Sequence record: EF517107.1
Source: a phage
Reading direction: 5' to 3' (one strand)
DNA: 555 bases
The notes under the pieces were generated by a model. That model was not told the DNA's origin. It did not search any database and saw only the letters and a program-made list of their open reading frames with translations. This document shows positions 112 through 555 of the stretch, piece after piece; the first letter of the stretch is position 1; each line of letters opens with the position of its first letter. Position numbers and translations under genes: made by a program.

Positions 112-261
112 ATGTTCCGCTTATTGTTGAACCTACTGCGGCATAGAGTCACCTACCGATTTCTTGTGGTACTTTGTGCTGCCCTTGAGTACGCATCTCT
201 TACTGAAGACCTCAGTTCACTGGAGTGTGTCGTTTGCTCTATACTCACTTGTAGCGATTAG
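112..261 (+). CDS. 19.5: Small hypothetical protein, 49 aa, T7 gene 19.5-like (function unknown)
   Basis: ATG at 112 preceded by GGAGG with 6-nt spacing; open frame to TAG at 259-261; in-frame upstream stop TAA at 79-81, so 112 is the first in-frame ATG. Hand translation: MFRLLLNLLRHRVTYRFLVVLCAALEYASLTEDLSSLECVVCSILTCSD. Length and position about 240 bp upstream of the terminal repeat match T7 gene 19.5 as I recall it; identity not verified by alignment. Confidence 0.8.
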   Translation: MFRLLLNLLRHRVTYRFLVVLCAALEYASLTEDLSSLECVVCSILTCSD

Positions 262-343
262 GGTCTTCCTGACCGACTGATGGCTCACCGAGAGATTCAG
301 CGGTATGATTGCATCACACCACTTCATCCCTATAGAGTCAAGT

Positions 344-363
344 CCTAAGGTATACCCATAAAG
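344..363. repeat. Imperfect direct repeat, unit A (CCTAAGGTATACCCATAAAG)
   Basis: Shares CCTAAGGT..ATACC..TAAAG with unit B at 381-400, differing by small indels; carries the heptamer CCTAAGG at 344-350. Confidence 0.6.
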
Positions 364-380
364 AGCCTCTAATGGTCTAT

Positions 381-400
381 CCTAAGGTCTATACCTAAAG
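381..400. repeat. Imperfect direct repeat, unit B (CCTAAGGTCTATACCTAAAG)
   Basis: Near-copy of unit A, 37 bp downstream; carries heptamers CCTAAGG (381-387) and CCTAAAG (394-400). Confidence 0.6.
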
Positions 401-414
401 ATAGGCCATCCTAT

Positions 415-429
415 CAGTGTCACCTAAAG
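415..429. repeat. Composite motif CAGTGT + CACCTAAAG (member of the CCTAAAG repeat family)
   Basis: CAGTGTCACCTAAAG; a related arrangement CAGTGTACGGACCTAAAG occurs at 506-523 inside the terminal repeat, and TAGAGTGACCTCTAAG at 33-48. Confidence 0.5.
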
Positions 430-500
430 AGGGTCTTAGAGAGGGCCTATGGAGTTCCTATAGGGTCCTTTAAAATATACCATAAAAATCTGAGTGACTA

Positions 501-555
501 TCTCACAGTGTACGGACCTAAAGTTCCCCCATAGGGGGTACCTAAAACCCAGCCA
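501..555. repeat. First 55 bp of the direct terminal repeat of a T7-type genome (genome-end sequence)
   Basis: TCTCACAGTGTACGGACCTAAAGTTCCCCCATAGGGGGTACCTAAA.CCCAGCCA matches the sequence at the physical left end of T7 DNA, which is duplicated at the right end as the terminal repeat (recalled, not aligned). One position, 547, differs from what I recall for T7. The window ends before the repeat does. Confidence 0.75.
526..538. repeat. GC-only inverted repeat CCCCC-ATA-GGGGG inside the terminal repeat
   Basis: Five C (526-530), ATA (531-533), five G (534-538); a perfect 5-bp G:C stem with a 3-nt loop, starting 26 bp from the beginning of the repeat. Confidence 0.6.

Follow-up and report, generated by a model that had tools for sequence, protein, structure and literature searches.

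Oriented heptamers and interleaved primase-type motifs beside the right terminal repeat in a phage T7 sequence

The stretch of DNA analysed here, called the window, is 555 nt long and aligned over its full length with nt 39278-39832 of phage T7 at 98.9% identity, so that the T7 coordinate equals the window position + 39277. Six substitutions distinguish it from reference T7 (window 90, 188, 206, 227, 293 and 547). Five of these are G-to-A or C-to-T transitions, and three substitutions alter gp19.5 (G26E, G32E and S39C). The window contains the last gene of T7 and the beginning of the right terminal repeat (TR). The heptamer region at 344-429, which corresponds to T7 39621-39706, lies in the non-coding DNA between them. 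Only ORFs of 20-38 aa overlap the non-coding part of the window and none of them is credible as coding. An earlier reading made from the letters alone (the sequence-only reading) had placed the repeats just upstream of the terminal repeat, in non-coding DNA flanking the site where concatemers are matured. Both points were borne out by the T7 alignment, in which the TR starts at window 501 and the non-coding DNA adjoins the T7 concatemer cut site. The 160-bp repeat is exact at both ends of T7. phiOR is located at T7 39229, ~390 bp upstream of the array. No record of the phage collection was found to match the window exactly, which suggests that it derives from a mutagenised or otherwise diverged T7 stock. 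The features of the window are as follows.

112-261, plus strand: gene 19.5, 49 aa, the last T7 gene; an ORF annotated at T7 39389-39538, forming the left limit of the non-coding right end
329-335, plus strand: CCTATAG, the first element of the heptamer family; invariant in 17 Teseptimavirus sequences, with CCTGTAG in the homologous place of T3
344-363, plus strand: the pair CCTAAGG (344-350) and CATAAAG (357-363), 13 bp apart; T3 and phiYeO3-12 have CCTAAAG and CCTAAAG, also 13 bp apart, in the homologous place
381-400, plus strand: the pair CCTAAGG (381-387) and CCTAAAG (394-400), 13 bp apart; a near-copy of 344-363
423-429, plus strand: CCTAAAG; kept in 16 of 17 close relatives with both flanks variable, and retained in all evolved T7 clones examined
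435-463, plus strand: the degenerate heptamers CTTAGAG (435), CCTATGG (446) and CCTATAG (457) at 11-bp spacing; CCTNNRG in relatives
466-500, plus strand: the non-repeat block TCCTTTAAAATATACCATAAAAATCTGAGTGACTA, which abuts the TR; 0 of 35 columns variable in 17 Teseptimavirus sequences
501-555, plus strand: the right terminal repeat (160 bp), of which the window contains the first 55 bp, aligned to T7 39778-39832; heptamers at 517-523 and 541-547

All the heptamer coordinates proposed earlier were found to be correct, namely CCTAAGG at 344-350 and 381-387, CCTAAAG at 394-400, 423-429 and 517-523, and CCTAAAA at 541-547. Every copy lies on the plus strand and no reverse-complement copy was found in the window. 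The claim that the family occurs far above chance also held on shuffling. CCTAARR is present six times against 0.47 +/- 0.78 expected from 200 dinucleotide-preserving shuffles, of which 0/200 reached six. The two units described as 20-bp near-copies align over 22 nt (343-364 with 380-401) at 82%. The related ATACC(N)ATAAA strings are indeed present at 352-363, 391-400 and 477-487, but they do not constitute a separate element because they are the heptamer variants CATAAAG, CCTAAAG and CCATAAA with an ATA flank. The array extends beyond the copies listed earlier and covers window 329-465 (about T7 39606-39742), with further family members CCTATAG at 329, CATAAAG at 357, CTTAGAG at 435, CCTATGG at 446 and CCTATAG at 457. 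Successive heptamer starts in the array are mostly 11-15 bp apart, 13 bp being the commonest distance. Tandem Repeats Finder recognized only a 13-bp, 2.3-copy stretch at 369-398, and the array is interspersed rather than strictly tandem. The CCTAAAA at 541, produced by one of the six substitutions, is private to the window, while T7 and nearly all relatives have CCTAAAG there. Left of the array, an imperfect palindrome, GGTATGATTGCATCACACC, occupies window 302-320. As single-stranded DNA it folds into a weak hairpin only (-2.6 kcal/mol, z = -1.4), and it may be the 'hairpin' processing site described by Chung, Nardone & Hinkle in 1990. The palindrome is deleted in several viable T7 clones.

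The distribution of the heptamer was then followed over the whole T7 genome. CCTAARG occurs 32 times on the plus strand and 7 times on the minus strand, with ~5 expected per strand, and 20 of the plus-strand copies are situated within about 340 bp of the two ends. The left end (nt 17-338) possesses 12 of them, four inside the TR and eight just right of it. The right end (nt 39621-39877) possesses eight, four in the 344-429 region and four inside the TR. The eight copies of the left flank, at T7 175-338, are on the plus strand and mostly 13 bp apart, matching the orientation of the right array. In the concatemer, the right-end array, the TR and the left-end array follow one another as one continuous unit of a single orientation. 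Over this 610-bp junction, strings with at most one mismatch to CCTAAAG were found 24 times on the plus strand and three times on the minus strand, against 1.5 expected, again mostly with 13-bp spacing. It is therefore nearly certain that the heptamers represent the right-hand short-repeat array of the T7 concatemer junction. We take this array to be the 'SRR' of Dunn & Studier (1981/1983), with 'SRL' as its left-end counterpart, both named when T7 was sequenced. The statement in the sequence-only reading that short repeats had been noted in the T7 ends agrees with these arrays. The heptamer array has thus been known since the T7 sequence was published and is not new as a discovery. Full-text literature searches, which did not reach the primary T7 descriptions, returned nothing relevant on SRL or SRR. 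The GenBank/RefSeq records of T7, T3, phiYeO3-12, phiA1122 and other phages annotate only terminal repeats, promoters and genes, leaving the short repeats unannotated. The record of phage Berlin was the only one seen with extra repeat regions off the terminal repeats (408-540 and 37697-37800), the left one (408-540) overlapping its 13-bp-period CCTTATG array.

Conservation within the genus was analysed in 17 distinct Teseptimavirus sequences, in which the positions of the repeats are kept. Window 329-400 is nearly invariant, more so than the neighbouring tail of gene 19.5, and window 401-465 is variable, mostly in the spacers. At 446 and 457, where T7 has CCTATGG and CCTATAG, relatives have CCTAAGG/CCTGAGG/CCTAGGG and CCTAGAG, respectively. 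In 401-465, the mean minor-allele frequency was 0.042 in heptamer columns against 0.076 in spacers, and 8/28 heptamer columns were variable against 16/37 spacer columns. This is a weak footprint in the expected direction. T3, phiYeO3-12 and phiYe-F10 show CCTAAAG pairs or runs 13 bp apart, in 2+2 to 2+4 copies, and the T3 group keeps these pairs despite diverged spacers. The layout is retained beside the cut site in 12/12 Autographiviridae genomes examined (T7 and 11 others), representing two subfamilies. Outside the T7/T3 group the repeated heptamer is a different one, as given below.

Berlin, Kvp1 and BA14: CCTTATG
K11: CCTGAGG, near-palindromic and scoring on both strands
K1F and EcoDS1: CCTACAG
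gh-1: CCATAGG
MmP1: CCTTAGG, near-palindromic and scoring on both strands
SP6, of a different subfamily: CCTTAGT at 12-bp spacing

All the non-palindromic heptamers form arrays of one orientation. A heptamer which varies by lineage at fixed position, period and strand is what would be expected for contact sites of a phage-encoded factor. The small-terminase protein gp18 is highly conserved across genera and the heptamer differences track phylogeny, so that covariation with gp18 is uninformative. The repeats are thus conserved among relatives, in position within the genus and in layout beyond it, and this comparison of sequences speaks in favour of a function.

The block at 466-500 was the only fully invariant stretch in the within-genus comparison. 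It is recognisable in T3, K11, gh-1, BA14 and PPWS4 and is the most conserved stretch in distant BLAST hits. As it is invariant in the genus, recognisable across genera and retained in distant hits, this block is likely to be the core cleavage/packaging signal and is a better candidate for that role than the heptamers. A related pair of short motifs was observed around the TR. ATCTGA lies inside the block at window 488-493, just left of the TR, and the related (T)ATCTGT is found at or next to the right TR boundary in T7 (161-167), K1F, K11, gh-1 (two copies) and SP6. (T)ATCTGT is the motif of the class II pause that T7 RNA polymerase makes at this junction of the concatemer.

Natural deletions in viable T7 clones showed how much of the array can be lost. 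OL964748 is without T7 39565-39664 (window 288-387), and with it the heptamers at 344, 357 and 381. Window 152-331 is absent from the aligned MZ375xxx clones. In MZ375287 and MZ375266, deletions of 9-10 bp fuse the heptamers at 381 and 394, and in MZ375271 window 407-414 is deleted and the first C of the 381 copy is changed. Window 415-555 is intact in these clones apart from about four positions with point changes and insertions of 1-2 bp. The losses amount to three of about nine copies, and loss of all copies was seen in no clone examined. Individual heptamers are dispensable, since clones without several of them, or with fused or mutated copies, are viable. Together with the invariance of 466-500 only, these deletions weaken a strict reading of the heptamers as required sites. 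MZ375271, MZ375287 and MZ375266 also share an 18-bp deletion inside the right TR (GGGTTGGGGATGACCCTT) along with other small indels, showing that the terminal repeat tolerates internal loss.

The same observations bear on the possibility that the repeats have no function and perpetuate themselves as a by-product of slippage or unequal recombination at the non-coding genome ends. Copy number differs among relatives (2+2 in T3, 2+4 in phiYeO3-12), evolved T7 lines carry small deletions between copies, single copies can be spared, and concerted evolution would likewise yield lineage-specific heptamers. However, two subfamilies agree in position, strand and a 12-13-bp period although the sequence around the repeats has turned over, heptamers also occur in non-tandem form inside the terminal repeat, and 329-400 varies less within the genus than the end of gene 19.5. 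A functionless origin is therefore considered very unlikely.

The heptamers might instead act through transcription, either by slowing or positioning, ahead of the class II pause, T7 RNA polymerase that arrives from phiOR, or in the RNA. In positions -7 to -1, T7/T3 promoters are similar to CCTATAG and CCTAAAG. The single orientation of the heptamers is the direction of transcription, all T7 transcription being rightward, and phiOR is positioned upstream of the array. The ATCTGT pause motif recurs at or next to the right repeat boundary in five phages, and polymerase pausing at the junction has been tied to packaging (PMC3276506). Yet the heptamer does not track promoter specificity, as T7 and T3 share CCTAAAG while their promoters differ at exactly that position, and it is unlike the known class II pause motif. 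Neither an RNA family nor a stable structure was found in the array. The Rfam search gave a chance-level match only (E = 0.38, 19 bits against a threshold of 50) and the single-strand folds had z-scores of -0.9 to -1.5. On this evidence, a role through transcription appears improbable.

Two other kinds of element were looked for and rejected. Sigma-70 promoters and terminators showed no excess over shuffles. Origin iterons do not fit the location of the repeats, as phiOR is far upstream and these repeats also occupy the TR and the left end. To our knowledge, T7 origins are promoter-driven and use no initiator protein.

The spacers of the array were found to carry a second class of motif. The extended major recognition forms of the gp4 primase are GGGTC, TGGTC and GTGTC, and strings of this type occur in the window as follows.

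373-467, plus strand: GGTC-type motifs TGGTCT (373), (A)GGTCT (385-390), GTGTC (417), GGGTCT (431) and GGGTC (463)

The window thus holds five to six primase-type sites on the plus strand and none on the minus strand, interleaved with the heptamers. In T7, the right-end segment 39621-39777 has four major primase-type sites on the plus strand and 0 on the minus strand, which ties the genome maximum for the plus strand. The left-end segment 161-345 has five on the minus strand and 0 on the plus strand, which is the genome maximum for the minus strand. Over seven genomes, which are related and in which duplication of units inflates the within-genome counts, the outward-template strands carry 18 and 15 sites against 4.0 and 4.2 expected (0/1000 dinucleotide shuffles each), and the opposite strands carry 5 and 0 sites against 3.4 and 2.9 expected. 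The held-out genomes BA14, EcoDS1, PPWS4 and MmP1 gave 10 sites against 2.7 expected and 6 against 1.1 (0/1000 each). When all 5-mers were scanned for mirror polarity, GGTCT, which is present in 11/11 genomes, came out on top (40 against 4, p = 2e-8). Beside the TR of T7 and 10 other genomes, GGTCT, TGGTC and GGGTC are ~4-fold enriched over composition, and their strand flips across the TR, being plus in the left flank and minus in the right flank. GGTC polarity is lacking in SP6, a single genome with counts too small to show polarity of GCA; the SP6 primase recognises a different triplet. No published description of the mirror polarity was found in the literature searched, which did not include the older T7 work.

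These motifs hint at a different account, in which the array would chiefly be a device of replication ends. The interleaved GGTC motifs would be start sites of the gp4 primase and the heptamers would be secondary. The strand that carries the sites is the one which serves as lagging-strand template when forks move outward to the nearer end. The last Okazaki fragment would then begin just inside the TR and leave the TR as a 3' single-stranded tail, and such tails could anneal to form concatemers, as in a Watson-type model. The strand-mirrored enrichment in T7, in the seven genomes and in the four held-out ones is in line with this account, as are the first rank of GGTCT among mirror-polar 5-mers in all 11 genomes, the start of T7 primase at 5'-GTC-3' (PMC3610141) and the behaviour of SP6, although the last point comes from one genome and tiny counts. 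Against it, the account covers the spacers but not the heptamers, which keep one orientation on both sides of the TR. The primase-type sites at 417 and 431 vary among close relatives, and the TR itself has plus-strand sites of this type 8 and 18 nt from the very end. The relatedness of the genomes and the inflation of counts by duplicated units also weigh here, and the extra T of GGTCT falls outside the known primase site, so that another factor may read the motif. Judged from these sequence patterns, a mainly replicative role of the array is somewhat unlikely. It is the main rival of a packaging role or else its complement, as it explains a different part of the array. A composite arrangement was also considered, in which the TR flanks would hold two interleaved codes. 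Heptamers of one orientation would serve packaging, and strand-mirrored GGTCT/primase sites would place the last lagging-strand primer inside the TR at both ends and so define the annealing 3' tails. This composite is regarded as unlikely.

For the heptamers themselves, the tentatively preferred reading, given somewhat less than an even chance, is that the concatemer-maturation machinery may use them as docking or architectural sites that are oriented and redundant. The sequence-only reading had likewise proposed binding sites for a packaging or processing protein, or structural DNA elements, a proposal that is reasonable and partly supported here. The heptamers would be individually weak, low-specificity sites of protein contact or DNA architecture which help the maturation/packaging complex to settle on the junction in the right orientation. 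This complex would consist of a ring of the gp18 small terminase with gp19, working together with T7 RNA polymerase that has paused there. The repeat boundaries and the invariant 35-bp block (466-500) would set the exact position of the cut beside the array. Loss of a few heptamers would be tolerated because the sites are redundant. One point against this reading is that far less than the full array was reportedly sufficient in the plasmid packaging assays of Chung and Hinkle in 1990. In its favour, a complex of RNA polymerase and lysozyme pauses at the junction, engages gp18/gp19 and starts maturation (PMC3276506). By one account (PMC9860248), PacB is recognised by gp18 and PacC is where gp19 cuts. 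The gp18 proteins of T3 and T7 are 92-93% identical and are interchangeable in packaging, while gp19 carries the T3/T7 DNA specificity (PMC3276506). As the heptamer is common to T3 and T7, it fits a shared factor such as gp18, and for the same reason the T3/T7 packaging specificity cannot reside in it.

T7, a model system, is also in wide use as an engineering chassis, be it for transducing particles, for phagemids or for the minimisation of genomes, and the role of its roughly 650-bp repeat-filled junction has so far been described only in outline. A conserved architecture with lineage-specific heptamers, of which several copies can be lost while the 35-bp block stays invariant, is useful knowledge for anyone designing reduced genomes or minimal packaging signals. 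Should the strand-mirrored primase-type motifs prove functional, the replication of ends and the formation of concatemers would be linked to a specific sequence; the sequence basis of these processes is an old question for linear phage genomes.

Compared with known systems, the heptamers are closest to the SRL/SRR arrays of T7, with which they share the phage, the coordinates, the CCTAAAG-type heptamer and the orientation, and nothing substantive differs. The pacB and pacC signals of T3/T7 (Chung & Hinkle 1990; Hashimoto & Fujisawa 1992; Fujisawa & Morita 1997) belong to the same junction region, but several heptamers are dispensable and the block at 466-500 fits a core signal better. With respect to gp4 primase sites, the matching strings lie between the heptamers, on the strand predicted if forks move outward, whereas the heptamers contain no GTC. 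The R sites of lambda cosB and the pacL/pacR boxes of SPP1 are likewise repeated short sites flanking a cut, and an oligomeric small terminase reads them. Those arrays are typically redundant, as are the T7 heptamers, for which contact with gp18 is putative. Unlike the lambda and SPP1 sites, the T7 heptamers are more numerous, occur on both sides of and inside a direct terminal repeat, and keep a strict single orientation with a 13-bp period.
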